Below are positions 1-31,542 of a stretch of 31,542 nucleotides of DNA, one piece after another. Each line of letters starts with the position of its first letter. Positions within the stretch are counted from its first letter, which is position 1. This DNA is from a virus (Duplodnaviria; Heunggongvirae; Uroviricota; Caudoviricetes): the IMG/VR virus record IMGVR_UViG_2711768060_000013, positions 1 to 31,542 of that record. One strand, given 5' to 3'. The notes under the pieces are model-generated. The model saw only the letters and a list, made by a program, of their open reading frames with translations. It made no database searches and had not been told where the DNA came from. The position numbers were made by a program, and so were the translations under genes.

Positions 1-147
1 CTCCTGCCATACCTGCTTCCCCGTTTTATCGCTGTCTGTCGGTGTCGCGGTATAGGGTACATATTCCTCCATATCGTCAAATAATATTTCGCAATTTATC
101 GCCCCGTGTTCAAGGCTGACAGGATTTTTTATATCTGTAATGTTCAT
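1..147 (-). CDS. 5'-partial ORF (49 codons, MNITDIKNPVSLEHGAINCEILFDDMEEYVPYTATPTDSDKTGKQVWQE, runs off window start); possible tail-fibre assembly chaperone or other distal tail gene
   Basis: ATG at 145-147 overlaps the TAA stop of the upstream fibre gene (TAATG on minus strand); frame open to position 1; position after a fibre gene suggests a chaperone but the sequence itself is not recognised. Confidence 0.4.
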   Translation of the reverse strand, partial: MNITDIKNPVSLEHGAINCEILFDDMEEYVPYTATPTDSDKTGKQVWQE

Positions 148-2318
148 TAACGATACCTTATAAATATTCCCAGAATATAATCACTCGTTTTCAGCCACGG
201 ATAGGAGGTCAGACTCCAGTAATATCCGGGAAACGTATGTTCCTCTTTAATATGAAGAGTCTGTTCGCCACTTTCATCGACTGTAATTATATATGGCTTC
301 AGAAGTGAACCACTTAAAGCATCACCTCGCTTCAGGGTGTATCCTCCGGGCTTATCCTGATAACGAAATGCCGCCTGAACAATACCGCCAGCCTCCGGTG
401 ATGCATTCAGCCCGTTGGAATAAACTGTACCGGACAAAAAATCAATTAATTCCTTATCAGTTCGTCTCCAGAGTTCCCATGCCGGGACACCAGAAGTGCC
501 ACGGGCGTAATAAACCTCTCCATTAACACCGTAAAAAAAATAAATCTTTTTTACGCCGTTAGTTGTACCTGCTAAATTTGAAGCCCAGATAATTTCAAGA
601 ATTCCACTGAATAGTACTTTTGGTATCACTATGTCGGGGTTTGCATAAACCAGATAACGCCCCGGTTTTGCGTCTCTTATCCAGGAATCAAATTCGGCTC
701 TGGTGTCAAAGCTAATCCTGTCATTAATATGAAAAATTTCACCAAAACCCAGTGCCCCCGGTATCGCCAGTCGGCCTTCTGTCCGGTCGTAAATATCACT
801 CTGTGGCTCCATTGTGGCGGCGCTTTTCAGCTCCAGTACTGTTCGCATGGCTTCCGGCGTTTCCTGCGCCAGCAGTGAGCGTCCCTTTTCTGACAGGGGC
901 GCAAGGGAGACGTATTCATCTGTGTCAAAGTACGGAAGCGTGTCAGCACGTTGTGTCAGGTTGCTGAGTGCCGTTAACACATCACTGAGTGGTTGTTTAC
1001 CCGCCAGCGCGTTAGTGACGGTTGTCGCAAAGTTCGGGTCATTGCCCAGCGCCGCCGCCAGTTCGTTCAGCGTGTCAAGGGCTTCGGGAGATGAATCCAC
1101 CAGTGCAGCGAGCAGTTTGCGGACAAACGCCGCATTAGCTATTTCAGTGCCTGCTGCATCATCTGGCGGTGTTGGCGCTGTCGGCGTTCCGGTCAGTGCC
1201 GGGCTGTTTAGTGGCGCGCGGGTTTCAATCAGTGCCCTGAGTGAAGCCTCGTTGACCTTCAGGTTCTCCCAACCAACCAGATAACCACCACTGGCAGTCC
1301 AGTAACGGTTGTAATAAACATGGCCGTTAATGCCATAGAAAATAATGATTTTAGGTATATATACCGGACTGGGATTGTGCTGATATTCTGGCCAGATAAT
1401 GTCAACAGTACCACTGAACAGCACACCCTGTATTACCACATTTGTACGTGCATAAACGGTATAGCGTCCGGGGTTTGCCCTTTTTACCCACAGTAGAAAA
1501 TCAGCCTCTGTTTCAAACTCTGTCCTGTCGTCATAGGAAAATATTTTCCCGAATCCGAACATGCCGGGAACCGCCAGTCGGCCTTCTGTCCGGTCATAAA
1601 TATCACTCTGTGGCTCCATTGTAGCGGCGCTTTTCAGTCCCAGATTATCGCGGGATTCCTGTTGCGCCTCTTCGCCTTCTGCCGCAATTTCTGACAGGTG
1701 GTTAGCCGTTTTGAGTGTCGCTGATAATGCGGTATCAATCTCATCCCTGGCCTGCTCCGCATCAGATGCGGCCTTTCTGGCAGCTTCAGCATCCTGCCTG
1801 ACCTCTTCGGCGGTATCCTCAATCTGAGAGGCCAGAATTTCGACCTGTTTTTTGTCTTCGGCAACGGCCTCTGCGTTCTGCTGTACGTTATCCGCCAGCG
1901 TCTCGCAGTCGCTCTTAATTTGTTGCGCATCAGCGACATGTTGCCCGGCCTGTCGTTCGCTTTCCGCTGCCGCTTCCGCGCTCTGCTGCGCCTGTTGAGC
2001 CAGTTCCTCGAATTTCTTCAGAGCTTCCGGGCGCAGGTCAATATCGGTTGCGCCCAGAAAATCATTCAGCGAACCGTCCGTTGAATCTTCATAAACGCGG
2101 ATGACACCGATTTCTGAAAGGCGCTGTGTGCTTTGTGTCAGGCGAACGCTGTACACACCCGGCAGAACGGGGAAGTCATATTCCCCGTTCTGTGTGGTGA
2201 CATGGCTGAAAACACTTTTCAGAATTCCTGCACGGTTGTGCAGGGAGGTCAGTGTAATGGTTGCGCCGCCCAGCGGTTCTCCCGTGGGCGTTTTAATCAC
2301 ACCTTTAAGCTGCGGCAT
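147..2318 (-). CDS. side tail fibre protein, 723 aa, lambdoid Stf-type N-terminal domain plus P2 gpH/Stf-like collar, internally duplicated module
   Basis: ORF track; N-terminus (VYEDS..GSLNDFLGA..RPEALKKFE) resembles the Stf-family N-terminal domain; Ala/Glu-rich coiled coil; APLNSPALTGTPT..ALVDSSPEALDTLNELAAALGNDPNF block typical of P2 H / Stf fibres; ATG at 2316-2318 with GGAG 8 nt upstream. Confidence 0.85.
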   Translation of the reverse strand: MPQLKGVIKTPTGEPLGGATITLTSLHNRAGILKSVFSHVTTQNGEYDFPVLPGVYSVRLTQSTQRLSEIGVIRVYEDSTDGSLNDFLGATDIDLRPEALKKFEELAQQAQQSAEAAAESERQAGQHVADAQQIKSDCETLADNVQQNAEAVAEDKKQVEILASQIEDTAEEVRQDAEAARKAASDAEQARDEIDTALSATLKTANHLSEIAAEGEEAQQESRDNLGLKSAATMEPQSDIYDRTEGRLAVPGMFGFGKIFSYDDRTEFETEADFLLWVKRANPGRYTVYARTNVVIQGVLFSGTVDIIWPEYQHNPSPVYIPKIIIFYGINGHVYYNRYWTASGGYLVGWENLKVNEASLRALIETRAPLNSPALTGTPTAPTPPDDAAGTEIANAAFVRKLLAALVDSSPEALDTLNELAAALGNDPNFATTVTNALAGKQPLSDVLTALSNLTQRADTLPYFDTDEYVSLAPLSEKGRSLLAQETPEAMRTVLELKSAATMEPQSDIYDRTEGRLAIPGALGFGEIFHINDRISFDTRAEFDSWIRDAKPGRYLVYANPDIVIPKVLFSGILEIIWASNLAGTTNGVKKIYFFYGVNGEVYYARGTSGVPAWELWRRTDKELIDFLSGTVYSNGLNASPEAGGIVQAAFRYQDKPGGYTLKRGDALSGSLLKPYIITVDESGEQTLHIKEEHTFPGYYWSLTSYPWLKTSDYILGIFIRYR

Positions 2319-2835
2319 CGGGACGCTCCGGCCAGTTGATGGAGTAAAAGGAGGCTTCGTCAGTAACGGTGCTTAAATCCAGTGCCTTTACCGCTTTGAT
2401 ATATGCCATCCACTGCGTAAGACGGGCTTTATCATCGTCGCTGATGGTGCCCAGCTCCAGCTCGGTTTTCCAGTCGGAGGTGATGTCCTTTGCTTCATTC
2501 AGCAGGCGCTGGCGTTGTTTTTCTGATAATCGTGGGTAATCAACAGGAACCGGCAGCACTTCGCCGTCTTTGTAATACCAGCTGGCTTCAATGCCAAAAC
2601 CTTCCGGCAGTTCATCCACTTCCACAATGGTAAAACCAACGGGATAAAGACGGGACACGTCTTCTGCCATTGAATAAATCACGCCGGATTCCGGGTGAAC
2701 ACACAATTTGTATTTCTTCGTGAATTTATCCAGTGATTCATAAAAATCCTGTCCGTCTTCACTGCGGAAATACTGAATGTTTTCACCATAAGGCATCTCT
2801 TCCAGGTAATAACGCGAGACGTTTCTGAGTTCCAT
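2305..2835 (-). CDS. tail fibre assembly protein (Tfa/U-like chaperone)
   Basis: C-terminal motif (ARLTQWMAYIKAVKALDLS...INWPERP) typical of Tfa family; start moved to ATG at 2833-2835, which has a perfect AAGGAG 7 nt upstream (the track start at 2871 overlaps the previous gene); follows a fibre gene. Confidence 0.8.
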   Translation of the reverse strand: MELRNVSRYYLEEMPYGENIQYFRSEDGQDFYESLDKFTKKYKLCVHPESGVIYSMAEDVSRLYPVGFTIVEVDELPEGFGIEASWYYKDGEVLPVPVDYPRLSEKQRQRLLNEAKDITSDWKTELELGTISDDDKARLTQWMAYIKAVKALDLSTVTDEASFYSINWPERPDAAA

Positions 2836-2849
2836 TATTTTCTCCTTAA

Positions 2850-3845
2850 TTAGCCGGATACCGTGCGCCATCCGCCATTGATATAAATCTGAGTTTGTTT
2901 GTAATACACGCCGCCGATGTTATCCGCAGAGCTCCTGCCAGTATCCTGAACGTTAATACCTGACAAAATACAACCTGAAGGCGCGCGAAATACCCAGGAA
3001 ATTTCGTTACCTCCGGGATTGTGAAACACTTCGCTGGTATATCTGAAATCACGCACAGCGCCGGAATCGGTGCTGCTGATGGTGATATCGCGGGTACCAT
3101 CAAATGCCGTACCGTTAATTTTGCGTGGGGTCTGTAGTTTGGTGGCGGTTGCTGCGTTGAAGCTGTCTTTTGATGTATACACCTGTGCCCATTCGGACCA
3201 GCTGGCATCTGCAGAATCACGTCTTGAACGGATATAAACCGGGGCATGCGCTCCACTCGTACCACTCCAGCCAATCAGCAGTTCACCTTCGCCTGATGCT
3301 GTCGCGCCTTTCAGGTGCAGAACATTGCCATAAGTGATGGGGTAGCCGTTGTTGTACGCTTCATACATCTGCAGCCCTGCATTGCCCTGTGCTGTGCCGC
3401 TTAATGCCGTCATCCGTCCTTTTGATAAAAGGGTGTCCGGTGACAGGCCAATTGCTTTAATAAATTCGCTGGCTGTGGTTTTCCCGAGAATACCGCGCAC
3501 AAAAGCACTGAGCGGCGTTAATGCCATTGTGTCTTCGCCCGTAAAATACGGGAACGTATTATTCTGACCGGTTAATCCGGCAATAGCTCCGGCTGAACCA
3601 CTGTTCGTAATAAACAGTTTTTTCAGCGCCGTCATAATCTGGTCGGTGGTGTTTTTATCCGGTTTGATATTTGCCTGCCGGAGAATTTCCAGCAGTTCGG
3701 ACTGAATAATATTAAACCAGTCCGGCCCCGGATAGGTGGGCGGAATACCATTCCCGCCTTCGGTGAAATAAAGCGTTGTTTTGCTTAATTCAGCCGCGAC
3801 AGGTGGCATTACCGGCACACCCGTCGGATTATCCACATGAAACAT
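2850..3845 (-). CDS. tail fibre protein (Mu S-like position), 331 aa
   Basis: ORF track; position directly after the baseplate genes; C-terminal ATKLQTPRKINGTAFDGTRDITIS and SWSEWAQVYTSKD motifs shared with Stf-type fibres. Confidence 0.8.
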   Translation of the reverse strand: MFHVDNPTGVPVMPPVAAELSKTTLYFTEGGNGIPPTYPGPDWFNIIQSELLEILRQANIKPDKNTTDQIMTALKKLFITNSGSAGAIAGLTGQNNTFPYFTGEDTMALTPLSAFVRGILGKTTASEFIKAIGLSPDTLLSKGRMTALSGTAQGNAGLQMYEAYNNGYPITYGNVLHLKGATASGEGELLIGWSGTSGAHAPVYIRSRRDSADASWSEWAQVYTSKDSFNAATATKLQTPRKINGTAFDGTRDITISSTDSGAVRDFRYTSEVFHNPGGNEISWVFRAPSGCILSGINVQDTGRSSADNIGGVYYKQTQIYINGGWRTVSG

Positions 3846-3848
3846 AAA

Positions 3849-4433
3849 TTATTCTCCGGTGTAATAATATTCATATTCCGTGCCCGCCAGTCGGTAATGC
3901 TTCAGCAGGCATTCCAGCTCGCGGGTCCGTTCGCTGATTAATGGCGTCATGACGTCATCAATACAGGTAAACCGTCCGGCATCTTTATCCGGGACTTCCA
4001 CTTTCAGCAGCCAGCGATACCGGGCCGGATACAGCGGATACATACAGTCACGCAGGCAGTGGTGCGGCAGAATGGCCGTCACCTTAATGGTGAAGCCCAG
4101 CGCCGCCGCTGCGGCTTCAATCTGCCAGGTTGCCAGCCCGCCTTTGCGGCGGTATTTCTCCACCACGGCCCGGCGGCGGGCTTCCGTTGTGGTGGCGGCA
4201 ATTCCGCATTCCGGCAGCGCCAGATATTGCTCCCACTCCGGCAGCAGCTGTAGCGTGGTTTCCGGGCGCATCTCCACATGCAGTCGCGAGGCGTCGTATT
4301 CAACGCGGGTTAAACGCTCTGCAAGCGCCCTTAAAAAACGGTTTAAATCTGCATCGTTATCACGCGGCCATGCCTTACCCCGTGGCATGACCTGTTGCAG
4401 TGCGGTCAGCCATTCCGTCACGCTGTGAGCCAT
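3849..4433 (-). CDS. baseplate/tail protein, Mu gp48-like (DUF2313, YmfQ-like)
   Basis: ORF track, 194 aa, synteny between the baseplate J-like gene and the fibre gene. Confidence 0.75.
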   Translation of the reverse strand: MAHSVTEWLTALQQVMPRGKAWPRDNDADLNRFLRALAERLTRVEYDASRLHVEMRPETTLQLLPEWEQYLALPECGIAATTTEARRRAVVEKYRRKGGLATWQIEAAAAALGFTIKVTAILPHHCLRDCMYPLYPARYRWLLKVEVPDKDAGRFTCIDDVMTPLISERTRELECLLKHYRLAGTEYEYYYTGE

Positions 4434-5494
4434 GTCACCTCCCCGATGGTAATAAGCTCATCCACATCACTGGTGGTGTCTTCCCCGATGTTCAGGAAGT
4501 AGTCCGCAATGCCGGACGTCATACCGATGGCCGTGCGCAGCGAGGACACCGGCAGCATCTGACCGGGGGCCAGCGTTTTCTGTAATGCGGTCAGGTTTGC
4601 CCGGACGGCGTTCCTGTTCGCCTGGCTGTCCGGTGTCAGACGGATGGACAGATCGACTTTCTTCAGCCTGACCTGTACCGGCCAGACCTCGATGCCGCCC
4701 GGTTTGCCCACCATCACGCCGGTGGCCGGGTGTTTGTGACAGAACAGATACTGCTCCATTGTCTTCAGGTCTTCGCGGGTCGGCACAATGTCTTCACGGT
4801 CATCATAAAGCCATGCCAGCCCGACCGTGCCGGGGCCGTGCCATGCATCCCACGCCCACGCGCGGCTGACGCCCGGCACTTCACGCGCCCATATCACGTA
4901 GTCATGCAGTGCACCGCCCACCGGGGGATTACGGCGCACATACAGCAGACGGTCCAGCAGCTCTGCGATGGATTCGATATCTGCGCCACCGGTGATGCCA
5001 CTTTCAGTCACCGCGCCGGTGCTGCCCGTTCCGGGTAGCGGGGACAACAGAGTGAGCACGGCACCGGCAGCAAGATTGCCCGCCACACCGGCTTCTTCAG
5101 CCTGCACGATGACGGTGACCTCGCCGTCCTGTACCTCGCCGGATGTGAGCACCTGATACACCTGATTCGTGTCGGACTGCATCCGGGTTTCTGCCGGGAG
5201 GGGAGACTGACTGGTGAAGGTCACCGGCCCGCTGGCAAAGGTGGCCTGCTTGCGGATAACCCCTTCATACGTTGCCGTTTTAATAATGGTTTCATCATCA
5301 GACGCGGTGGACGGAATAATCTGGTCTTTAATCCAGCTCTGATGGTCGTATAAATCCCGAACCTGACTGCTGAATGACACGTTCAGCGCCTGCTCAACAC
5401 TGACAGGCGGCAGCTTTTGCAGGCCGAGTTCATACGCAATATCTTTTTCGCCGTCGGCAATCAGTTTGCCCAGCGTGGGGATTTCATACGGCAT
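4418..5494 (-). CDS. baseplate J-like protein, Mu gp47-like
   Basis: ORF track; start moved to ATG at 5492-5494 with GGGAGG 9 nt upstream (track start at 5527 overlaps the upstream gene by 44 nt); synteny. Confidence 0.8.
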   Translation of the reverse strand: MPYEIPTLGKLIADGEKDIAYELGLQKLPPVSVEQALNVSFSSQVRDLYDHQSWIKDQIIPSTASDDETIIKTATYEGVIRKQATFASGPVTFTSQSPLPAETRMQSDTNQVYQVLTSGEVQDGEVTVIVQAEEAGVAGNLAAGAVLTLLSPLPGTGSTGAVTESGITGGADIESIAELLDRLLYVRRNPPVGGALHDYVIWAREVPGVSRAWAWDAWHGPGTVGLAWLYDDREDIVPTREDLKTMEQYLFCHKHPATGVMVGKPGGIEVWPVQVRLKKVDLSIRLTPDSQANRNAVRANLTALQKTLAPGQMLPVSSLRTAIGMTSGIADYFLNIGEDTTSDVDELITIGEVTWLTA

Positions 5495-5936
5495 TAATGG
5501 TGGCCTCCCATCGGCGGGTGATTTCAATTGTGAGCGTGGTTTTGTCCGGGCGGGTTAACACCACCTGAAAGGCAATACGGTCAGGGACGATGATTCTGGC
5601 CGTGACGGTGGCGTTACGGGCGTAACCGGCCCGCAGCAGCGGTTGCATGGACAACCGCGCGTAATCTTCCACACGCAGGCGGACATCTTCCGTCAGCTTT
5701 TCACGCTCAAGCAGCCACAGGCGGGAACCCCACGAAAAATCGCTGTACGTGTCGCCCGGCCAGCCGCGCGGGTCGCCAGAGCCGTCAGGAATGACATCAT
5801 CGTCATCAGCACGGGCATCGGTGAAAAGGCAGATAAGAACCTGAGTGACCAGCCCCTCATCCAGTGAGAGGCCGTTATGGGTGACGGTGATGTCACCCCG
5901 TGAGAGCATGTTATTCCAGCGGATTCCTGTCGTCAT
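5484..5936 (-). CDS. baseplate protein, Mu gp46-like (GP46 / T4 gp25-like family)
   Basis: ORF track, 150 aa, ATGA overlap with the upstream gene, synteny. Confidence 0.8.
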   Translation of the reverse strand: MTTGIRWNNMLSRGDITVTHNGLSLDEGLVTQVLICLFTDARADDDDVIPDGSGDPRGWPGDTYSDFSWGSRLWLLEREKLTEDVRLRVEDYARLSMQPLLRAGYARNATVTARIIVPDRIAFQVVLTRPDKTTLTIEITRRWEATINAV

Positions 5937-6469
5937 ACGGGCGGTGATGTATTCTCATTGTCGCCGTCCCTATGAGTGTGTTTGATGAAAGATTTGCCGT
6001 TGATGGTGACATCTTCAGTAAATTCACAGGGACCGACGAATTTCATTTGTTTACCGATAATATTCAGCAATTCGTCGGCGGTGAGATTTACCGTTTTCCC
6101 TGAAACGTTTAATTGTTCTCCTGTGATTTCAATAATTCCGCCTTTCTTTAACGTGATATGTGATTTGCCGTCCTGGTGATACAGCCGGACGTCGCCGGGG
6201 GACAGACCTTTAGGGCGACATCGCTTGTCCTCCACCGCGATGGCAACCAGCCCGTCACGCCGTCCGCCAACGGCCAGCACAATAGCTTCAGAACCTTCCG
6301 GCGGAACGGAAGTAAACCCGTAGTTCTGGAAGCGTTCCACGTCGTCGTCAGTGGCATCTGCCAGCGTCTGGATTTGCAGGTTCTGCCGCTCCAGACTGTC
6401 AGACACCATGCGGACAATGGCACGGTCAACCAGCAGCCGCAGACGGCGGGCAATGGCGTTTAATCCCAT
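5933..6469 (-). CDS. baseplate spike/assembly protein, Mu gp45-like (gpV-like)
   Basis: ORF track, 178 aa, recognised gp45-family sequence, synteny. Confidence 0.8.
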   Translation of the reverse strand: MGLNAIARRLRLLVDRAIVRMVSDSLERQNLQIQTLADATDDDVERFQNYGFTSVPPEGSEAIVLAVGGRRDGLVAIAVEDKRCRPKGLSPGDVRLYHQDGKSHITLKKGGIIEITGEQLNVSGKTVNLTADELLNIIGKQMKFVGPCEFTEDVTINGKSFIKHTHRDGDNENTSPPV

Positions 6470-7533
6470 GTGGCCACCGTCTTTGCTGATTTCTTCGTCT
6501 TCGCTTTCATTTCCGGCATATCCAGAGATTCAGGCGGAACCAGCGCCAGAACCGTCATCCGCCCCTGTGCGCCATCCGTCCAGGTCACCCCGGATATCAG
6601 CCAGGTGGTTTTCAGGTTCTGAATGCTGTCGTCAATATCGACAAGGCGGTTGGTCTGCCACAGCGGGCCGCTGTCGCCCTGTTCGCGCCAGCCTGCCACC
6701 GTGATTTCCGTCGTGCGGGCCTCTCCCAGCATCCGGGCCTTGTACCATTCCCCGCGAATGCTGGCACCGCCCACGGTCAAACTGTCTTCATTGACCAGAA
6801 TGCGCGGGCGGTAACGGTTAATTTCCGGGTCTTCGGTGATGTACTGGCGACCACCCACCATCGAGGCAGGCTGGCTGTCCCACAGTTTGCCACCGGCACT
6901 GGTGGTGCCCTTGATGATGTACTGGCTGTTACGCTCCCGCCAGCTGAAGCGCCCACGGGCGGCGAGGATATTTTTTCCCAGCATCAGTGACACGCCCGCG
7001 CGAACGGAAGAGGCGCGGGTGATAATCAGGTTACCTGCACCGTCAGACGTCAGCAGAACACCGCGCTGTTTTGCCAGCCGGTCGAGCAGTTCAAACCCCG
7101 TTTCACCCTGTTCCAGAACGACAGACGCAAACGCCTCCCCGGTCGGGGTTTCCGTGATGACGGTTATCCCGAACGGGCGGCAGACATCAGCCGCCACCTG
7201 TTCAAGCCGCACGCCTTTCCATTTCCCGGACGAATGCACCACAGAGCAGTCCACCAGGTCGCCGGTTTTGTCGCGCCCCATGACGCGAATCTCCACGTTA
7301 TCTGCGTCATAGCTGGGGATAAAATCATCGATATACCCCGTCAGCACGGTATCCGCGCCCAGCCTGACCGTGCAGGGTTGCCCCTCACGAATCACGCGCG
7401 GTGCCGCTGCCGACCAGCGGGTTGTCACACTGAGATCAAACTCACCGGCAATCGCCTTCAGGGAACGGCTGATGGACATTTCCGTCCAGCCTTCCCACAG
7501 TTTGCCGTCAACGGTAAGAATCACGGATTCCAT
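6460..7533 (-). CDS. baseplate hub / tail protein, Mu gp44 (P)-like
   Basis: ORF track, 357 aa, synteny after the DNA circularisation protein. Confidence 0.8.
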   Translation of the reverse strand: MESVILTVDGKLWEGWTEMSISRSLKAIAGEFDLSVTTRWSAAAPRVIREGQPCTVRLGADTVLTGYIDDFIPSYDADNVEIRVMGRDKTGDLVDCSVVHSSGKWKGVRLEQVAADVCRPFGITVITETPTGEAFASVVLEQGETGFELLDRLAKQRGVLLTSDGAGNLIITRASSVRAGVSLMLGKNILAARGRFSWRERNSQYIIKGTTSAGGKLWDSQPASMVGGRQYITEDPEINRYRPRILVNEDSLTVGGASIRGEWYKARMLGEARTTEITVAGWREQGDSGPLWQTNRLVDIDDSIQNLKTTWLISGVTWTDGAQGRMTVLALVPPESLDMPEMKAKTKKSAKTVATWD

Positions 7534-22135: not shown

Positions 22136-22137
22136 GC

Positions 22138-23966: not shown

Positions 23967-24177
23967 TGAATTTTTCCCTGTACTTCTGGCACTGCCAGAA
24001 AATGTCCCGTGTATCCACGGAGTTCCAGCCACGCATGTAGTAGCTGGCGTGTGTGCCGTCATGGCCGGTGTAGTCCACCGGTTTCGGGGGCGGACCTCCG
24101 GCCATGCGGTGTAAAACCTCCTGGCGCAGGCGGTCACGCCGCCCGGCTTTCAGTGAGGCGTCCCAGCCTTTGCCCAT
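23926..24177 (-). CDS. hypothetical protein (83 aa) immediately after the endolysin
   Basis: ORF track; ATG directly downstream of a G8 tract; in the -1 frame relative to the endolysin. Confidence 0.45.
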   Translation of the reverse strand: MGKGWDASLKAGRRDRLRQEVLHRMAGGPPPKPVDYTGHDGTHASYYMRGWNSVDTRDIFWQCQKYREKFNVEKGNEQNFKTV

Positions 24178-24767
24178 ATCCCCCCCCGCGTGGTGGACGG
24201 CGCGTTGTCGATAATTTCCAGACAGGCGTCGGTCAGTTTTTCCATGCGGTTAAACCAGCCGTTCAGGTATTTACCCTGGGCGGGTTTTGACTTGATGATG
24301 TCGGCATAAAAGCGGGAACGACGGACAATGCAGCGGGTCAGCAACCAGTCCGGGGTGGACAGGCTCACGGCCTTACGGGTACACGGGCCGATGATGCCGT
24401 CAGCATCCACATCAGCGGCTTCCTGCAAAATTCTGATGGCTTTTTTAACGCCATGCTGAACCGCCGCATCGAACACAAACATCGCCACGCCATCAGGCCA
24501 CTGGTCACATCCGGCAGGCAGCCAGTAATCACGCAGGTAAATCTGTGCGGCCTGTTCGCGGGTTAAATCTTTGATGCGGGTATCCGGTTTACCGTCACCG
24601 TTGACATCGGTTTTGCCGTCAATCACACCGTCGCGGCGGTCAGAAATGCCGTATTTGGTTTCGCCGCCACGGTCAGTGGGGTCATTGACATAGACGCCTT
24701 CGATATCAGGACGCAGAATGAAATTCAGCGCATGTTCAAAGGCCGGGGAGAATTTTTGATTTTCCAT
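24150..24767 (-). CDS. endolysin, GH108-type N-terminal domain plus PG_binding_3-like domain; no SAR/TM segment
   Basis: ORF track, 205 aa; EGVYVNDPTDRGGETKYGI motif typical of GH108; AGGTG 6 nt upstream of the ATG. Confidence 0.8.
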   Translation of the reverse strand: MENQKFSPAFEHALNFILRPDIEGVYVNDPTDRGGETKYGISDRRDGVIDGKTDVNGDGKPDTRIKDLTREQAAQIYLRDYWLPAGCDQWPDGVAMFVFDAAVQHGVKKAIRILQEAADVDADGIIGPCTRKAVSLSTPDWLLTRCIVRRSRFYADIIKSKPAQGKYLNGWFNRMEKLTDACLEIIDNAPSTTRGGIWAKAGTPH

Positions 24768-24822
24768 AAAAGCACCTGTGAAGCAGATTTAAACGTGGTC
24801 TGCTTCATGGTGCCGGAGGCAT

Positions 24823-24848
24823 AAAAAAAGCCGGATTTACCGGCTTCA
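24823..24848 (-). terminator. intrinsic terminator 8 nt downstream of the mor stop (AAGCCGG-TAAAT-CCGGCTT then T7 on the minus strand); same element as 17047-17072
   Basis: hairpin and U-run read directly from sequence. Confidence 0.6.
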
Positions 24849-24852
24849 TTGA

Positions 24853-25302
24853 TTAAAGGCGTCGTGGCGGACGACGAACGGGGTGAGGCAGGTTCGGGGA
24901 GGGGTAAAACAAATCCGGCTGGTATTTATTACGCTCCAGACGTCGCATCCGTTTGATGGCCTTGTAGACGGTTTTATACGTCACTCCGTAACGCTGAACC
25001 AGTTCAGGAATATTATGGCCGTTAAAATCACGCCAGATACGCATATCCCGGACAAGATTCTCCAGAATATTCCCCCTCGGAACATAAACCTGCATCCCGC
25101 CGATATGGCGACAAATCGCCACAACCAGCTCAAGGGAATGAACAGGGTCTGCGCCAATCCGGGCCAGCTCTTTACGCAGCAGTGCGTTCAGTTCAGAAAG
25201 TAACGCCGGATAAGCGGTGTTTTCCTGGTAATCATGAAGATATTCCAGAACGCTGTCGTCCCGGAGGTCTTCGAATAAATCCTGCTCTTTCATCTGTTTC
25301 AT
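24853..25302 (-). CDS. mor: Mor/C-family transcriptional activator (Mor-like, 149 aa)
   Basis: ORF track; sequence recognised as Mor-like (DLF.DL.DD..L..L......PALL.EL..LLR.EL...G.DP.HSLE.VVAIC.H.GG.QVY.PRG...L.RD.RIW.DFNG.N..EL...YGVT..TVYKAI.RMRRL); follows gemA. Confidence 0.85.
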   Translation of the reverse strand: MKQMKEQDLFEDLRDDSVLEYLHDYQENTAYPALLSELNALLRKELARIGADPVHSLELVVAICRHIGGMQVYVPRGNILENLVRDMRIWRDFNGHNIPELVQRYGVTYKTVYKAIKRMRRLERNKYQPDLFYPSPNLPHPVRRPPRRL

Positions 25303-25847
25303 ACAGCAATTCTCCCGCTGTTTCGTGCGCGGGCATACGCACTGGTCAGTGCATCATAGCCGCGCAGTTCCCGCCCGGATGGGCTTACAGGTAAAGGCAC
25401 ACCATGTCGGGCAAAGGCTTCACGGATGCAGCGCATGTGCCACTGTTTGAGCGTTTCGAGCACAACCTGCAACGATTCCCCGTGACACCAGGCCAGTGTG
25501 GAAACACCCTGACCGCCATTACGTCTGGCCGTCAGGCGCTCAACGTATTTGTCCAGCGCGGCGTCGCTGATATCGGAAACGAAACCATCAAGGAACATCT
25601 GCTGCCAGATTTTGTAAATCTTCTCGCGTGGTGTGACATGCCCCTTAAAGCGACGGCGGGGATGTTTTTTCTGCTTCTTAAAACCGCGCTCTTTCATGGC
25701 ATCGAGCACACGTTCCAGTTGTGCAACGGACAGCTCGCGGCAACTGGTCTTGCCCGTGCACTGCACCAGAAAGGCGCGGTAAGTGTCATCGTCGAGTTGT
25801 AGATCACGACGAGCGACATGAATTAATTTAATAAGCGATGCGCGCAT
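25299..25847 (-). CDS. gemA: GemA-like protein (Mu gp16 family, DUF1018)
   Basis: ORF track; start moved to ATG at 25845-25847 (MRASLIKLIHVARR...) with GGAGA 8 nt upstream; recognised family. Confidence 0.8.
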   Translation of the reverse strand: MRASLIKLIHVARRDLQLDDDTYRAFLVQCTGKTSCRELSVAQLERVLDAMKERGFKKQKKHPRRRFKGHVTPREKIYKIWQQMFLDGFVSDISDAALDKYVERLTARRNGGQGVSTLAWCHGESLQVVLETLKQWHMRCIREAFARHGVPLPVSPSGRELRGYDALTSAYARARNSGRIAV

Positions 25848-25913
25848 GATGCGTATCTCCATTAAAGCGGTGTTGCAGCACCGCCATTACGTTAAACAAA
25901 AGGAATTACTGAA

Positions 25914-26156
25914 ATGTCTGAATCCACCAAAGATAAAAATTATGACTTTGCAGCATTTTCTCTTGCTGGTAATACCCTCATAAAACTCGTTGAAAAGGGC
26001 GTCATTGATATTCGCGATGCCAAAGATGTTATTGACCGAACACGGGCAACCAACAAATTCGGCAGTTCGCTCAAGTGCGATGTCATTGGCTCTCCTGCTG
26101 AGGACTGTATAGATTCTCTTTTTCTGAAACTTTGGGATTCAAAACCGTTGAAATAA
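25914..26156 (+). CDS. opposite-strand small ORF (80 aa) inside the early region; possible moron
   Basis: ORF track; ATG with AAGGA 9 nt upstream; sits in a gap with no minus-strand ORF; AT-rich by eye; 3' end overlaps the minus-strand ORF 26083-26448 by 74 nt. Confidence 0.35.
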   Translation: MSESTKDKNYDFAAFSLAGNTLIKLVEKGVIDIRDAKDVIDRTRATNKFGSSLKCDVIGSPAEDCIDSLFLKLWDSKPLK

Positions 26157-26448
26157 ACAAACAACGCTCATAATCAGCCGTTCTTATAATGGCTAAACCG
26201 TCTACACCAAGCTCACGGCGAACTAATTCGTCATGGGCTTTTTTTTCAAGAAACACAAATTCAGTTTGTAATAATGACAACTCTCGTTTGATAACACTCA
26301 TAATTTCTCCCACCCCCCATTGCTCCTCGATTGCTTTGAACACAATCTCACGCATTCTTAGGGGGACACCCTTTTGCTGACAAAAATCGTCAAATGTCAT
26401 GCCGAAATAATATTCATGATTTTTTTTATTTGTTGTCGTCTTACTCAT
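26083..26448 (-). CDS. hypothetical early protein (121 aa)
   Basis: ORF track; ATGAGTAA start/stop overlap with the upstream gene. Confidence 0.55.
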   Translation of the reverse strand: MSKTTTNKKNHEYYFGMTFDDFCQQKGVPLRMREIVFKAIEEQWGVGEIMSVIKRELSLLQTEFVFLEKKAHDELVRRELGVDGLAIIRTADYERCLFISTVLNPKVSEKENLYSPQQESQ

Positions 26449-26626
26449 TTCTTAATACCTCTTCACAATAAAAGATTTCACCGGGATAACGTTTTTGTAT
26501 GCGCTCCATCACCTGCATACATGCCTGCTCTGTGGGCCAGATTTTTTCCGTTACGGGTATGGCATCGCAGGCATCATTCCCGCAGGTGCTAACCAGCAGG
26601 ACAAAGCCAATTGACTTAATCACCAT
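26441..26626 (-). CDS. small Cys-containing protein with signal-peptide/lipobox-like N-terminus (MVIKSIGFVLLVSTC...)
   Basis: ORF track, 61 aa; hydrophobic N-terminus ending VSTC. Confidence 0.5.
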   Translation of the reverse strand: MVIKSIGFVLLVSTCGNDACDAIPVTEKIWPTEQACMQVMERIQKRYPGEIFYCEEVLRNE

Positions 26627-26852
26627 TCATCTCCATCTGTTCCAGGCGCTGTGCTTCGCGCATACACAGCTGCGCAATCATCATCTGGCGGGTAATGCCT
26701 GCACGAATAAACGAAGCTGCACGACGGAGATTTTTTGCATTCGCCTGTTGAATCAATGCAGGCACTGATGCCAGACATTCTGCGCTGTCTTTAATCAGCG
26801 TTGCAGCTGTTATTTCCGGTGCTTGTTGCTTATTCCTCGTCATCTTCGTCAT
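26616..26852 (-). CDS. hypothetical early protein (78 aa)
   Basis: ORF track, same strand, short overlaps with neighbours. Confidence 0.45.
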   Translation of the reverse strand: MTKMTRNKQQAPEITAATLIKDSAECLASVPALIQQANAKNLRRAASFIRAGITRQMMIAQLCMREAQRLEQMEMNGD

Positions 26853-27084
26853 CCTTTACATTCAGCGTTACAGGAAATTTTTCGAACATGAAAAGGGCAA
26901 GCCTTGCCCCAAGTCTCAGAAGGTTTGCTTCCTTTGAATGTGCAGGGATAACGCATTTCTCACCGTCATTGTCGAAGGTAATATCCGCATCTTTTTTATC
27001 GATAAAAAAACGACATTCCTCCACGCGTGCTTTATGCCATGCACATAAAGAGACAATGCATTCTTTCATTTCCTGATTCGTCAT
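26830..27084 (-). CDS. hypothetical acidic early protein (about 84 aa)
   Basis: ORF track frame; start moved to ATG at 27082-27084 (MTNQEMKEC...) with GGTGA upstream. Confidence 0.5.
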   Translation of the reverse strand: MTNQEMKECIVSLCAWHKARVEECRFFIDKKDADITFDNDGEKCVIPAHSKEANLLRLGARLALFMFEKFPVTLNVKDDEDDEE

Positions 27085-27178
27085 AAATATCACCATTTCA
27101 GATTTAGGCGCGAGCAATCCCCTGACGCATCGCGCCATAATTAAAAGAAAGTGAATTAATTAAATATTCGTAGTGGTA

Positions 27179-27703
27179 TTAAATACCGGCTTCCTGTTCA
27201 AACGGAATAATAGAAAAATCTTCAATGCCCGATTTAACTGTAATTCCGGCAACACCTGCGACCGCTTTCGGTTCCAGTAAAATCGCTTCCCTGTTGATTT
27301 CCTGTTTCGTGCGAATAAAACGTTGCAGGCCAAGACGCTCCAGCGTTTCCATCACCGCATCCACACCGCGAATACTTACCGATGGTGGGCGCTGACGCCA
27401 TGACACATCGCCGGTTACCAGGTTCGCCGTCTTCACCTTGCCGCCGTTCGTCAGTTCGTCGCGGTTCGCTTCACACCATCCCTGTACGCCTTTTGAAAGG
27501 GTTTCAATACTGGTTTTAAGGGGCGCAATCTGTGAGGCGTATTTCTCAGTAATTTCAGCGATAGCGTCATTCATTTCCGTTTCAAGTCGTGCCGCTTCGC
27601 GTTGCAGGTCACCAATCCGGCGAATATCACACACCACGGCATCGCGGGATTGAGGAACATAAGCTGCTGCGGCACTCTTGATTCGTTTTGCTGGTTTAGC
27701 CAT
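27179..27703 (-). CDS. gam: host-nuclease inhibitor protein Gam (Mu Gam family)
   Basis: ORF track, 174 aa, recognised Mu Gam sequence. Confidence 0.9.
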   Translation of the reverse strand: MAKPAKRIKSAAAAYVPQSRDAVVCDIRRIGDLQREAARLETEMNDAIAEITEKYASQIAPLKTSIETLSKGVQGWCEANRDELTNGGKVKTANLVTGDVSWRQRPPSVSIRGVDAVMETLERLGLQRFIRTKQEINREAILLEPKAVAGVAGITVKSGIEDFSIIPFEQEAGI

Positions 27704-27723
27704 ATAAATAAAGCTCCTGTTAA

Positions 27724-28014
27724 TTAATATTCGCTGTATACAATGCTGGATACAGCACGATTGCTTAATTCCATCTTTTGGGCAATAACATGAATAGCCA
27801 GCCCTTCTTTATAAAGTTCACGACACAAATATTTGTCGTGCTCACTGATTCGGTAAACACACAACGATATTCCGTGCCTTCTGGCATGTGCCCGGAGAGC
27901 GGTTGTGGCAACTTTCAGTTTTTTCGCCATTTCTTCGACGGTCATTTTTCCGACATTGGCTTCGATAAACTCCCGGTCTTCGCGTGACCATCTTTTGCGA
28001 GGGATTATCATCAT
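27724..28014 (-). CDS. small helix-turn-helix-like DNA-binding protein (96 aa)
   Basis: ORF track; basic segment TVEEMAKKLKVATTALRAHARRHGI resembles an HTH. Confidence 0.55.
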   Translation of the reverse strand: MMIIPRKRWSREDREFIEANVGKMTVEEMAKKLKVATTALRAHARRHGISLCVYRISEHDKYLCRELYKEGLAIHVIAQKMELSNRAVSSIVYSEY

Positions 28015-28025
28015 GCCTCCTGCAA

Positions 28026-28220
28026 TTAATGTTTAGCTGCATCCGGGTTATACCGGAATAACTCGCCTTCGGCTTCCAGCCCAAGTTCTCTGGCTGACTT
28101 CAACAACTCCTGGGTTGCTTTTTCAATAATTTCAGGAGCCATGCTCTTGATAATGCCTGCCATCACGTCATGCGGTCCTATTTGCGCCTCAGGTGACTGT
28201 TCTTCCAGTTGCACACTCAT
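28026..28220 (-). CDS. small acidic hypothetical protein (64 aa)
   Basis: ORF track; ATG at 28218-28220; AGGAGG upstream. Confidence 0.5.
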   Translation of the reverse strand: MSVQLEEQSPEAQIGPHDVMAGIIKSMAPEIIEKATQELLKSARELGLEAEGELFRYNPDAAKH

Positions 28221-28326
28221 CCCTACAAAGAAACCTCCTTTTTTTGAAACTCAACATCTTCCATGCGGTTAAATTCAAAGATTACTTTTGCCATTTTGTT
28301 ATTCCTCACAAATAAATAAGCCGTTA

Positions 28327-28554
28327 TTAACGCCAGATAATCTGGCAACCATTAAGGCGGGCCGTCCAGACTGAACGGGCAACCCCTGATTTATGCTCCA
28401 TAATCCTGACAGCGTTTCTGACCAGCTCCGGTGGTGGGCAGGTGATTTCAAGTACCGGGCGGGCTACGCCCAGCCAGGATTCGTTGACGTGGCTGCCGCG
28501 CTCCTGTAACCAGCTCTTTACTTCCGTTGCCATTTTGATATTCCGTGACATCAT
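28327..28554 (-). CDS. kil: Kil-like small protein (75 aa) in the Mu kil position directly after B
   Basis: ORF track frame; start moved to ATG at 28552-28554 ([12 protein letters not shown]...) with AAGGAGAG 7 nt upstream; position and size match Mu kil as I recall it. Confidence 0.6.
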
Positions 28555-28567
28555 GATTTCGCTCTCC

Positions 28568-29506
28568 TTACGTGCGCAGCAGGGTTGAAATATCAACGTC
28601 CAGGTCTAATTCACGGAAAGCCTGACGCAGATAATCTTCATTAACACGTTCACCTTTACCGTGGGCGGTCATGGCAGCAAGGCGCAGCGAGTGGTTCAGG
28701 ATGCGAAGCGCACCTGGCTTTTGTGCAATCTGCTGTAATAATTCCCGCTCGTTTTCGCCGGTAATTTGCCAGGCATCCGCAATGGCTTTTACATCATCAA
28801 TTTTGGTTTTATTGATTGCCGTCCGTTTGGCAATACGGGAAAACAGGCGGGCAAATTCAACCGTTCTGTTACCACCGGTCATGTTTGAATAAACACGGTG
28901 ATTCCCCATCAGAACAAGGCCAATACGGGCGGACTCCTGTAACAGGCGGAGTTCTTCCAGAACCTCAGCGCCAAGATGATCAGCTTCGTCGATAATGACC
29001 AGCCCCTGCGTACCTTCAAGACGGCGTCTCAAAGCGCGGGAGAGTGGCCCCTTACGGCGTGGTGCGTCATTCATTCCCAGTTCATAAGCCAGTTCAGTCA
29101 GGCATTCCAGAACACTGGCACAGGATGGGGTAATGGTGATCATCCAGACATTGTTATTGGTGCGACGAAATTCGCGGGCCGCTTCAGTTTTTCCCACACC
29201 TGGATTACCGCAGATAACAGAAATACTTTCAGTCAGGCTGGCAAAACGCATACTCGTCCAGATTTGGCGTGCTGTTCTGGTTTCCACAAAACGTGGTGGT
29301 TCTGGCAGCTCTGCGGCACGGTGATAGTTCTCCAGCCAGCGTTCCAGCGTCTGCGCAACACGTTCATTGTCGCCGTTGTACTTGTTATTCACGAATGCGC
29401 TTAACGTTCCTGCGGCCACGCCAGACTCGCGTGCAATTTGTGCATAAGTCGCTTTTTCACTTTCTACAAGCGTGCGCAGTCCTGCGCGAATATCGGAAAT
29501 ATTCAT
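28568..29506 (-). CDS. B: transposition ATPase / target DNA activator B (MuB)
   Basis: ORF track, 312 aa, recognised as near-identical to MuB ([15 protein letters not shown]..., Walker motifs [17 protein letters not shown]). Confidence 0.95.
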
Positions 29507-29544
29507 CTGAATAACCTCGTAATTAAATTTTGTTTAAACGTTAA

Positions 29545-31542
29545 TTAAATGGCTTTTTTACGTCTGTTCTGTTCCAGAATATCCAGCGAATGATTCAGAT
29601 ATTCATCACGATCAGTTTCATATTCATCATCGGGTTCCTGGTATTTCACCTGCACCGTGTTACCGGAAGGCCGGAAAATACCAACAACCCTTGATTCTGG
29701 CGCTGCTGGTTCGGCTATCTGCGGCAGCAGTTCAGCAACTTCCAGCGCGTCCATTTGCTTCTGCGCCTTAATGGCTGCTTTAGTTGCAGATTTCAGTTGT
29801 TTCTGGCGGCGGCGATATTCGCGGCCTGCCGCAGCATCATTAAATGCAACAGGTGCCAGACATTCCGCTTCACAGATAAACCGACCGTCCAGGGTGTAAC
29901 AATAAACCGTGCTGTGTAACTGCTGTGGATCAAACCTGACCACAACTTTTTTCACATTGGCATTCATTAACGCCATGTTGTAATAAACGTTTTTCGCGCC
30001 TTTAAGGGAGCCGCCAACTTTAAGCGTAAACTCGCCTTTGCGTGAAACGTTCACCGCCTCGGCAGGCAGTAACAGCATCCGTTTTTGTTCTTCGGTTGGC
30101 TTACGCACAATCGTTCTGGCGTATTCACGCTCGAAAACATCATCAAACGAGAGTTTGCCCCCGCACATTTCTGTTTCACGGCCTGTTCTGGCATTGAACA
30201 TCGCCACACCTTCGGCAAGGGTTTTCAGAAACAGCTCTGCATCAACAGCGCGGTCGCCATAGTTATCAGGTTTTGCCTGCGGATTTGGCCCCGTATATGC
30301 ACCAGCCAGTGCCGGATGCTTATCAACGTATTCCTCAAGCCCACCAACACCGAAAGCACGTTCAACAGGTTTTGCCTGGCCCCAGCCTTTACCGGCAACA
30401 ACGCTTGTCCAGTGCATTTTCGCGCCCATCAGTAAAAACAGCCCTTTTGGATCGTCCTCTTTTACCTTAAAGCGGTAGCGATTGGGCGCGCCTCCCGTCA
30501 GCCATTTATTCGCAGCACCACGGGTGTTATCAATGGTGATGTGAAAATCCTCCGGGATACCGTAGCGAGTCACAACATCCATGAACGAGAGGCGAATTGA
30601 ATCGATGTTCTCACTGACATCGCAGCGCCAGCCCAAAATTTTTCGGGTTTTCACATCCTGCCAGAACCATGTTTTCGGGCGGATCACATCACCGTTAAAC
30701 CAGCGTACAAAGACGTTATGCAGATAACCGTCGCCGTTGATCCACTGCATGGCGTCCAGGTGTTCCACAGTTCGCTGCTGTGCCGGTATCAGATGCATCA
30801 GAGCATGTTCACCTTCACGGCAGGCAACAACCATTGCCTCGTCCAGTTGCTGAATCCGGCGAAAGGCCGTGGCACGGGAGGGAATACTCCAGCCATGCTC
30901 GCGGGCTGCCAGTTCCAGACGCTCATAACATTTGCGAAAGGCGGGTTTTTCCGGTCGCAGATAATCTGCAATCAGAAACTGCCAGGCATCCTCGTCAAAT
31001 TCACTTTTGTGAATGTTGCGACGGGATGCACCACGTCCATCAACAAGCGCAGCCGCCCAGTCAGGCTTCGCAAACTTCTGTACCTGGTAATATTTGTCTC
31101 GCAAAGTGGATGCGCTGACCTGGTAATGTCCTGCAACGGTCGCAAATGCCGTTTTTGTTGAAATCCCCTGGTTCAGCATTTCGTCTGCGGCCTGAACCGC
31201 AGGCAACCATTTTTCAGCAAGTTTGCGCTGGGAATCGCTGGCTTTATCCCATTTGCTCCACAGTGCCTCGCGATCGTAATCGTGGGCTTCCAGCGTGGGG
31301 CGGGCGATTTCAAAATACCCCTGGCTTGTTTCTATTTGCTCAGATTTTAATAACAACTCAGCACGTGCTGCCGCTGGTAGAACTGATATATGAAATTCCA
31401 AAGCCTTTGAACCCGTACGCTTGCGACGTAGTTCTGGATGATTGGCTGCAAGCTTTTCAAGATTGCGGCGAATACTCACCTCATGTTTAGGAAAGCATGA
31501 CATTCCTACGCATTCTTGCGCTGTTACCCAATGGGTTAACAT
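29545..31542 (-). CDS. A: DDE transposase A (MuA), 665 codons; ATG at 31540-31542 is at the window edge so the true start may lie beyond the window
   Basis: ORF track; from about residue 77 onward the sequence is recognised as essentially MuA; the first ~75 residues differ from my recollection of Mu. Confidence 0.95.

Follow-up and report, generated by a model that had tools for sequence, protein, structure and literature searches.

A probable two-part hybrid Mu-like prophage of Escherichia coli, with Mu-group transposition and immunity genes and the late genes of a separate Enterobacterales lineage

Source and overall structure of the prophage

We analysed a 31,542-bp stretch of DNA (the window; virus record IMGVR_UViG_2711768060_000013). 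The window very probably represents an apparently intact, two-part hybrid Mu-like prophage, in which a transposition and immunity head of the Mu group is joined to the late genes of a separate Enterobacterales lineage. By sequence comparison, the left 6-7 kb (attL, the C-terminal half of the repressor gene c, the transposase gene A from about residue 68, B, kil, gp9, gam and gemA) is assigned to the Mu/D108/SfMu pool. Embedded in it is a predicted immunity cassette with its own specificity, consisting of the Xre-type N-terminal half of c, operators, ner and domain I-alpha of A, and the same cassette occurs in E. coli SE11. The ~26 kb from mor to the fibres is assigned to another, as yet unnamed Mu-like lineage, known from prophages only. 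An earlier note on this DNA had proposed a mosaic phage of the Mu/D108 group; it was right about a mosaic transposable prophage, but the ~26 kb from another lineage goes beyond the few swapped modules it had envisaged.

The window equals bases 1-31542 of E. coli contig CXYG01000018.1 (draft assembly GCA_001269325.1), numbered alike in both. The element disrupts ykgH of its E. coli host. The 87-kb contig physically ends at window position 1 and, on the other side, runs on past position 31542. The DNA beyond that position includes a 100% match to ykgF-ykgG-ykgH of many E. coli genomes, and the last matching base is the one that directly precedes the phage end. A Mu-type left end, TGTATTGATTCACTTGAAGTACGAAAA, starts at contig position 32878, 1,336 bp past 31542; the five host bases adjoining attL read TGGGC in phage orientation (GCCCA in contig orientation). 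The right end is absent from CXYG01000018.1, the contig stopping at window position 1. Thus, of the ends and immunity region that had been expected just outside the window, the left end, c and ner were found within 1,336 bp, but the right end was not.

In relatives, a DUF4376 chaperone gene comes next after the second fibre gene and is followed by com and mom. By analogy, ~1.7 kb is probably missing from the window copy, comprising the rest of the DUF4376 chaperone gene, com, mom and attR. The window holds ~92% of a Mu-like transposable myovirus prophage that would be roughly 34.4 kb as a whole. Its substantial open reading frames (ORFs) all lie on the minus strand, tightly packed into one unbroken phage gene array, and include the hallmark genes of transposable phages (gemA, mor, a DUF935 portal gene, F and a gpT-type major head gene). 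Rfam and tRNA scans of the window gave no matches.

Transposition genes and left end

The early genes are listed below. Per-gene identities to Mu, here and throughout, come from blastp against the annotated proteins of Mu (NC_000929).

29545..31542, minus strand: transposase A, 665 aa; its start codon is the window's final three bases
28568..29506, minus strand: transposition ATPase B, 312 aa; Pfam AAA_22 and Phage-MuB_C
27103..28554, minus strand: Mu-group early accessory genes, ~90% DNA identity to Mu
28327-28554, minus strand: kil, 85% identical to Mu Kil
28026-28220, minus strand: D108-gp7-like ORF, 64 aa, 83% identical to D108
27724-28011, minus strand: gp9-like gene, 93% identical to Mu
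27179-27703, minus strand: gam, 93% identical to Mu Gam
25299-25850, minus strand: gemA; Pfam GemA
24853-25302, minus strand: mor; Pfam Mor; closes the early genes together with gemA (24853..25850)

Transposase A has the Pfam architecture HTH_Tnp_Mu_1, HTH_Tnp_Mu_2, DDE_2, Mu-transpos_C and showed 91.4% identity to MuA over 661 aa. Domain by domain, the identity was 37% in I-alpha, which is the enhancer/operator-binding domain, 98% in I-beta, 99% in I-gamma, 326 of 327 residues in II and 93% in III. The DDE triad is intact (D271/D338/E394, aligned to D269/D336/E392 of Mu). The core of the protein and its end-binding domains are in essence those of Mu. Since the protein is 98-100% identical in I-beta, I-gamma and II and the DNA is only ~92% identical, the core of A appears to be under strong purifying selection. 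B adjoins A, is 89.7% identical to MuB and carries the same Walker A motif (GNPGVGKT). The earlier description of A and B as near-identical to Mu is therefore accurate for A past its first 76 residues and slightly overstated for B.

At the DNA level, the early block is ~91% identical to Mu over 3.9 kb, with identity of at least 90% limited to window positions 28327-31335 and 27103-27990. No blastp counterpart of Mu gp6-8 or gp11-13 was found in the window. The early accessory block is non-Mu to this extent, as the note had suggested, but its kil, gp9 and gam products are 85-93% identical to Mu.

The left-end sequence, TGTATTGATTCACTTGAAGTACGAAAAAAACC..., is 95% identical to Mu bases 1-457. It contains three matches to the MuA-site consensus (L1-L3) with Mu-like spacing, against 0.13 expected; at the left end, the one that was examined, the genome begins 5'-TG and carries a transposase-binding-site array.

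The immunity cassette

Between the left end and A lie the gene for a 202-aa repressor c, on the opposite strand, and the gene for a 75-aa Ner homologue, which is 42% identical to Mu Ner. Residues 105-202 of the repressor are 53-57% identical to Mu-group c. Its N-terminal part is an Xre-type helix-turn-helix domain (HTH_3), with Kp4866-3 (38%) and Pseudomonas transposable phages (46%) as the nearest phages; no deposited phage covered 80% of the repressor. These alignments show the repressor to be a domain chimera. Within c the homology to Mu/D108 is lost, to return near codon 68 of A, and these exchange boundaries, inside c and near residue 68 of A, are the ones that divide Mu from D108. The sequence points to an enhancer-binding domain of A that was swapped in and travels with c and ner. 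The cassette was present at 99.6-99.7% identity in two of the 5,426 complete E. coli genomes, SE11 and N1286.

The c-ner intergenic region and the start of c (L004 9549-9705) contain the half-site AAAAATGCGC(A) at least four times, in inverted pairs, for example AAAAATGCGCA-N12-TGCGCATTTTT at L004 9672-9705. The AAAAATGCGC(A) half-sites are operator candidates for the Xre-type repressor. They appear to differ from the Mu operators.

The late region follows Mu order but is distant from Mu

GemA is 80% identical to Mu, versus 39-51% to the non-E. coli relatives described below, and Mor is 62% identical to Mu, versus 66-71% to those relatives. Because GemA is closer to Mu and the genes from the endolysin onward are closer to the non-E. 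coli relatives, the old junction is placed around gemA/mor, near window position 25300. DNA past mor showed no match to Mu of at least 300 nt, only scattered stretches of 84-232 nt at 66-78%. The packaging, head, tail and baseplate genes are as follows.

17212..22431, minus strand: packaging and portal genes (gp26-like, 99-aa and 52-aa ORFs, TerS, TerL, portal, F)
21120-21698, minus strand: gp27 TerS-like; Pfam Phage_Mu_Gp27
19537-21120, minus strand: TerL, 48% identical to Mu
17969-19540, minus strand: portal (DUF935), 31% identical to Mu
17212-18033, minus strand: short F; Pfam Phage_Mu_F
12988..16998, minus strand: head and connector genes, 59-73% identical to Kp4866-3, with PHROG and Pfam matches
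16036-16998, minus strand: protease/scaffold I, 27% identical to Mu; start codon at 16998
15131-16036, minus strand: major head T, 38% identical to Mu
within 12988..16998, between T and the gp36-like gene, minus strand: 103-aa ORF of the head/connector block
14304-14741, minus strand: gp36-like, 32% identical to Mu
13762-14307, minus strand: G-like morphogenesis protein; Pfam Phage_tail_S, PHROG tail completion/Neck1
13154-13765, minus strand: protein in the gp37 position, head/connector block
12988-13188, minus strand: gp38-like, head/connector block
3849..12988, minus strand: tail and baseplate genes (sheath, tube, gp41 chaperone, tape measure, N, P, gp45-gp48)
8807-10663, minus strand: tape measure, tail block

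These genes run as in Mu: TerS, TerL, portal, F, I, T, gp36, gp38, sheath, tube, gp41, tape measure, N, P, gp45-48, S and U-like. The departures are a G-like gene placed after gp36 rather than after F, a short F (273 aa versus 439 aa in Mu) and the lack of a C gene. The earlier note had described head, tail and baseplate genes in Mu order, and blastp agrees apart from these three exceptions; it had missed that the proteins are only 27-50% identical to Mu. Among the packaging and head proteins, identity was 61% for gp26, 50% for TerS, 48% for TerL, 31% for the portal, 35% for F, 27% for I, 38% for T and 32% for gp36. Among the tail proteins it was 42% for the sheath, 28% for the tube, 50% for gp41, 29% for N and 38% for P, and the baseplate proteins gp45-gp48 reached 31-41%. 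The tail and baseplate block matched Pfam Phage_sheath_1, Tail_tube, Gp41_Mu, DNA_circ_N, Phage_GPD, Phage_Mu_Gp45, GP46, Baseplate_J and Phage_Mu_Gp48. C, lys, gp23, G, gp35 and gp37 of Mu had no blastp counterpart in the window.

Relatives of the two parts

To 50,697 phage records, the first 25 kb of the window gave megablast matches only with Klebsiella prophage Kp4866-3 (22% covered, 74.5%) and short fibre-gene matches; the last 10.5 kb matched Mu/D108 best (37-40% covered at ~91%). Whole-length identity to one described phage was not found, both best matches being partial, and the searched phage collection held no cultured representative of the late module. By rough arithmetic, ~5.5 kb-equivalents of 32.9 kb can be aligned to Mu, or ~16% identity-weighted. 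The genus guideline of the International Committee on Taxonomy of Viruses is ~70% nucleotide identity. The marks of the genus Muvirus, namely genome-wide nucleotide identity, a three-tier cascade with Mor and C, an invertible G segment with gin and lysis by a signal-arrest-release (SAR) endolysin with spanins, are all lacking.

Mu, D108 and SfMu (Muvirus) share with the prophage the transposase core, MuB, kil, gp9 and gam at 85-100% protein identity, a nearly identical left end with L1-L3, the overall gene order, gemA, mor, the DUF2730 protein and gp26/gp27; com/mom at the right end is shared by its relatives. In contrast to them, the window is without C, the gin/G segment, the SAR endolysin gp22, the gp23 spanins, gp6-8 and gp11-13. 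It has a moved G-like gene, a short F, a second Pm-like cassette before I, late proteins at 27-50% and an Xre-type helix-turn-helix repressor in place of the winged-helix N-terminal domain of Mu.

The late module was traced further in other Enterobacterales. A TerL scan of species-representative genomes turned up relatives among Kluyvera, Pluralibacter, Klebsiella, Raoultella and Brenneria. Kp4866-3, a predicted prophage (OK490420; PMC8617712), is collinear with the window from mor to gp48 at 56-89% amino acid identity, and its packaging and portal proteins are 69-89% identical. Kp4866-3 and the Kluyvera, Raoultella, Pluralibacter, Klebsiella and Brenneria relatives are collinear from mor to the baseplate genes at 65-74% nucleotide identity, and share the GH108 endolysin, a 202-aa membrane protein, TraR, DUF2730, the short F and the G-like gene after gp36. 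However, the Kp4866-3 transposase is only 26% identical, and the fibres of Kp4866-3 and these relatives are different. In the non-E. coli relatives as a group, the late proteins are 60-94% identical, A only 26-59%, and no Mu-type Gam was detected. The closest named relatives of the portal protein are Kp4866-3 (71%) and Vibrio Mu-like phages (57%), with Mu at 31%. The identity of TerL is 94% to a Kluyvera intermedia prophage and only 73% to E. coli 06-00048, whose similarity is otherwise 92-99%; from these comparisons TerL appears to be a local mosaic patch within the late region.

Within E. coli, the late block was found in 45 of the 5,426 complete genomes, at 93-94% nucleotide identity and coverage of at least 80%. 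The two carriers examined, 06-00048 (CP015229) and ETEC1703 (CP122923), both have a Mu-type A-B-gam module. They are 92-95% identical in nucleotide sequence to the window from A to the first fibre gene, with both promoter cassettes and tandem fibres. They differ in having Mu/D108-type immunity with a MerR-family c, an attL only 80% identical, a TerL at 73%, another second-fibre tip and other accessory ORFs between gam and gemA. The opposite combination is found in E. coli SE11 (NC_011415.1, ~2,660.3-2,696.9 kb): its prophage matches the left 4.5 kb (attL, c, ner, A, B, kil) at 96.5% and the immunity cassette at 99.6% over 1,586 bp, and has a GH108 gene after mor, but its late region is genuinely that of Mu (93% nucleotide identity), with C, lys, the G segment and gin.

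At 35,259 bp, the ETEC1703 relative is bounded by Mu-type L and R ends, and the 5-bp duplication AAGAG occurs on either side of it. The Mu R end, reading inward, is TGAAGCGGCGCACGAAAAACGCG. The insertion sites differ: the window copy is in ykgH, the ETEC1703 copy between ydcI and hglS, the 06-00048 copy beside ansP and the SE11 copy in an rpn gene. The ETEC1703 ends and duplication, together with relatives at different loci, indicate that the lineage moves by transposition. Our first model for the right end, taken from 06-00048, was dropped in favour of ETEC1703, since the terminal ~94 bp of the Mu-type R end is missing there: Mu right-end similarity begins ~94 bp inside the terminus (L006 9540-9780), and no R1-R3 sites were seen. 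The 06-00048 copy adjoins antirepressor and Icd-like genes of another element.

Prophage Sp18 of E. coli O157:H7 Sakai (PMC7430833) was considered as an already-described equivalent. It is a transposable Mu-like myovirus prophage with the same general gene order, but only 139 residues of A could be aligned (34%), B is 48% identical, the late proteins 25-47% and the fibre/chaperone proteins 55-59%, and it has an invertase. It was rejected, being as distant as Mu or more so.

A duplicated terminator-plus-Pm-like cassette

Two copies of a 42-nt repeat, 90% identical to each other, lie at the heads of the two late blocks.

24811..24852, minus strand: cassette copy 1 (TCAATGAAGCCGGTAAATCCGGCTTTTTTTATGCCTCCGGCA), right after mor and 60 nt before the endolysin start
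17036..17077, minus strand: cassette copy 2, in the 213-bp gap between F and I, followed by a -10-like CATACT and the start of I at 16998

The terminator-like hairpin, GAAGCCGGTAAATCCGGCTTC, is identical in both copies and is accompanied by a T-run, and a 21-mer core of the cassette matched twice in the window against 0 expected. Copy 1 aligns base for base with Mu 9170-9200, in the Pm region. For Mu Pm, the published descriptions of the promoter that we used place a Mor dimer on a 16-bp dyad at -51 to -36 (PMC4287176, PMC4390567).

We positioned the dyad from the coordinates -51 to -36 and the Mu transcript start, and its register may be off by a few bases. At the spacing of TATCCT in Mu, copy 1 has CACCAT and copy 2 has CATACT. 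Both copies are found at the same positions in E. coli 06-00048 and ETEC1703 and in Kluyvera, Pluralibacter, Brenneria and one Raoultella prophage. Mu, D108 and SE11 carry the post-mor copy alone, without the one between F and I; Kp4866-3 has the post-mor copy, and no second copy was found before its I at up to 3 mismatches. Changes in the stem are compensatory (AAACCGG...CCGGTTT in Pluralibacter, AAGGCGG...CCGCCTT in B. salicis), and the -10-like hexamer is conserved. Two further 16-mer matches with 3 mismatches (6086-6101 and 22109-22124) were rejected as cassettes; they lie inside genes and are probably due to chance. A sigma-70 promoter scan of the window returned fewer sites than shuffled sequence and was not informative.

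One Mor/C-family gene and no C homologue were found in the window, a count that leaves the missing 1.7 kb unseen, and the full-length ETEC1703 relative has one Mor-family gene. Because there is a single Mor/C-family gene, no C and two conserved Pm-like cassettes, we propose that one Mor-type activator may serve two promoters. The duplicated terminator-plus-Pm-like cassette suggests a Mor-only late cascade; a literature search on Mor-only Mu-like phages found nothing specific.

Lysis genes and tail fibres

The lysis cassette follows copy 1.

22431..24767, minus strand: lysis cassette, six genes, endolysin to gp25-like
24150-24767, minus strand: GH108 endolysin; Pfam Glyco_hydro_108 and PG_binding_3, PHROG endolysin; no transmembrane domain
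23926-24177, minus strand: gp18-like, 69% identical to Mu
23541-23951, minus strand: 136-aa holin candidate with several transmembrane domains, by hydropathy
22945-23553, minus strand: 202-aa membrane protein, by hydropathy
22721-22948, minus strand: TraR/DksA zinc finger protein; Pfam zf-dskA_traR
22431-22736, minus strand: gp25-like DUF2730 protein; Pfam DUF2730

The N-terminus of the endolysin has no hydrophobic segment. The 202-aa membrane protein gave a weak GTA_holin_3TM match (20.7 bits), under the Pfam cut-off. Mu is lysed by the SAR endolysin gp22, the spanins gp23/23.1 and the DUF2730 releasin gp25, with no holin (PMC9239132). Of this set only the DUF2730 protein is kept: gp22 (lys) and the gp23 spanins had no blastp match in the window, which, with the GH108 endolysin, bears out the earlier view of a non-Mu lysis cassette. 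We infer a conventional holin-endolysin route with a cytoplasmic GH108 enzyme. The arrangement of GH108 with DUF2730 is not new, because DUF2730 proteins paired with cytoplasmic endolysins had already been noted in other Mu-like phages (PMC9239132). In the SE11 Muvirus prophage, a GH108 gene (L008 32402-32962) with ~70% nucleotide identity to the window endolysin gene stands directly after mor, and a Mu-lys-like gene is found further on. GH108 thus also occurs within the Mu group.

Two fibre sets end the window.

2305..3845, minus strand: fibre set 1, S-like fibre and Caudo_TAP chaperone
2850-3845, minus strand: S-like tail fibre, 331 aa; only the first 127 aa align to Mu S (36%); PHROG tail fibre
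2305-2835, minus strand: Caudo_TAP chaperone, 32% identical to Mu U'; Pfam Caudo_TAP, PHROG fibre assembly
1..2318, minus strand: fibre set 2, Stf-like fibre and truncated next gene
147-2318, minus strand: lambda-Stf-like fibre, 723 aa; Pfam phage_tail_N (PF08400) and CarboxypepD_reg; no Mu match
1-147, minus strand: opening 49 codons of the following gene, which the contig end truncates

The second fibre (147-2318) is non-Mu, as had been claimed for both fibres; the first, however, retains the 127-aa alignment to Mu S. DNA of the Stf-like gene is similar to fibre genes of Rac, phiP27, P1 and P2, and its distal ~600 nt (147-745) had no megablast match in the 5,426 complete E. coli genomes. Both fibre/chaperone sets are co-directional, and no gin or G segment was seen in the window; nor was an invertase found between the fibres and com/mom in 06-00048 and ETEC1703.

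Proposed life cycle and alternative explanations

Upon loss of the repressor, the early operon would be transcribed from ner through mor, and MuA and MuB would carry out replicative transposition on the Mu-type ends. A single Mor-type activator would then act on two Pm-like promoters, each immediately downstream of a terminator hairpin, in a two-tier scheme without C; one promoter would drive the lysis and packaging genes, and the other the head, tail and fibre genes. Lysis would proceed by a holin and the cytoplasmic GH108 endolysin, not by a SAR endolysin and releasin. The virions would have two fibre sets encoded side by side, with no invertible G segment. The data establish the gene content, the identities, the left end, the host site and the conservation of the cassette; from them we infer that the prophage is active, that the two promoters depend on Mor, that the holin is correctly assigned and that both fibres are displayed.

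Several points weigh against this reading. The contig does not include the right end, com/mom or the second target-duplication copy, so that completeness and a clean transposition insertion are not visible for the window copy. The 06-00048 copy may be immobilised, judging from its sequence, and some members of the lineage would then be immobile. The step in GC content between the early (46.5%) and late (~57%) regions is also present in Mu and does not tell the direction of module exchange. The Mor dependence of both promoters is read from sequence, and the hairpins could be simple terminators. Neither the window nor the complete relative showed a third Pm-like cassette ahead of com/mom or the tail genes; with Mor as the sole activator, I through the fibres would form one ~17 kb transcript and mom would be under other control. 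The holin assignment combines hydropathy with a sub-threshold Pfam match. No spanin was found, the sole outcome of the o-spanin lipoprotein search being an implausible ORF that lies within F.

Some of these points would fit a grounded or defective remnant, which has lost its right end or an essential function and forms neither transposition products nor particles. The right end is out of view, with the contig stopping in the gene after the second fibre; 06-00048 is without the R1-R3 segment; no spanin was found; and in the ETEC1703 annotation the Stf-like fibre is frameshifted and the S-like one split. We nevertheless regard a remnant as unlikely. All ~45 genes have open frames, lie close together and reach the full length seen in relatives, with no insertion sequences, and the DDE triad, the Walker A motif and an attL with L1-L3 are intact. 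The fibre/chaperone sequence in which the contig breaks off at window position 1 has 80-90% matches in hundreds of other fibre genes of E. coli prophages (757 records, up to 8 places per genome), which commonly causes an assembly to break.

The earlier note had in effect read the element as Muvirus proper, with only lysis, fibre and some early accessory modules replaced. A, B, kil, gp9 and gam at 85-93% to Mu, a left end at 95%, the Mu-like late order and the same immunity cassette in the true Muvirus prophage of SE11 all speak for this. It is very improbable, however, given head, tail and baseplate proteins at 27-50%, no DNA match of at least 300 nt past mor and the absence of C, the gin/G segment, the SAR endolysin and spanins, whereas SE11, a real variant, has a late region 93% identical to Mu in nucleotide sequence.

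An assembly chimera of two prophages of the strain, conceivable for a draft assembly of a strain that may carry several, has almost no chance of being correct, as Mu-type A, B and gam are continuous with window-type mor, lysis and late genes in closed genomes (92-95% nucleotide identity across the junction) and the late block recurs in 45 genomes. The same architecture in closed genomes shows that the hybrid is not a misassembly. The GC step was dropped as evidence of a chimera, since Mu itself has 47.2% versus 55.4%.

Beyond the two-part hybrid, a bolder reading can be considered, namely that the E. coli branch of the lineage is a naturally re-wired Mu, with a Mu transposase core and Mu ends under an Xre-type repressor that no longer shares a fold with I-alpha, a Mor-only duplicated cassette and two fibre sets displayed at once. 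We hold this as possible but doubtful. If true, repressor and transposase would no longer compete for operator and enhancer through a shared fold, as they do in Mu, and host range would be widened by simultaneous fibre display, not by G inversion.

Implications

The comparisons indicate that the Mu transposition module (ends, A core, B, kil and gam) is passed around in E. coli as an interchangeable unit and works with at least two unrelated late-gene sets and at least three immunity cassettes. The points of exchange coincide with boundaries of protein domains, one inside c and one separating I-alpha from I-beta in A. For annotation, a 91% MuA match does not make a prophage 'Mu', and ~0.8% of complete E. 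coli genomes have the other late module. The element is of an ordinary kind and leaves the understanding of how transposable phages work unchanged, but it is a useful example of mosaicism. The parts most worth bench attention are the Xre-type repressor and the duplicated Pm-like cassette, which provides an experimental handle on late-gene switching in Mu-like phages without C.

Other genes and minor observations

The remaining ORFs of the early region lie between gam and gemA.

within 25914..27138, minus strand: accessory ORFs of 102, 75, 61 and 121 aa, without a Mu counterpart or with a weak gp14 match only
25914-26156, plus strand: 80-aa ORF in the position of the oppositely oriented Mu gp15, also present in the source annotation

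These ORFs on both strands had PHROG matches to families of unknown function only, and the small accessory ORFs had no matches in PADLOC or NCBIfam. The 80-aa ORF is the sole convincing plus-strand ORF of the window; SE11 has a DUF2513 gene in this place. The 61-aa ORF (26441-26626, minus strand) begins with an N-terminal hydrophobic segment ending in LVSTC, which resembles a lipoprotein signal, although the residue preceding the Cys is atypical.

In the tail block, at 10650-11145 (minus strand), the 131-aa gp41-like tail chaperone gene and a 45-aa ORF overlap, in the usual layout of a frameshifted tail-assembly chaperone pair (compare 41/41.5 of D108). Upstream of com in ETEC1703 (L021 9442-9564), a cluster of GATC sites (GATCGATAACATCATATCGATCG) stands ahead of com/mom and resembles the Dam/OxyR-controlled mom regulatory region of Mu.

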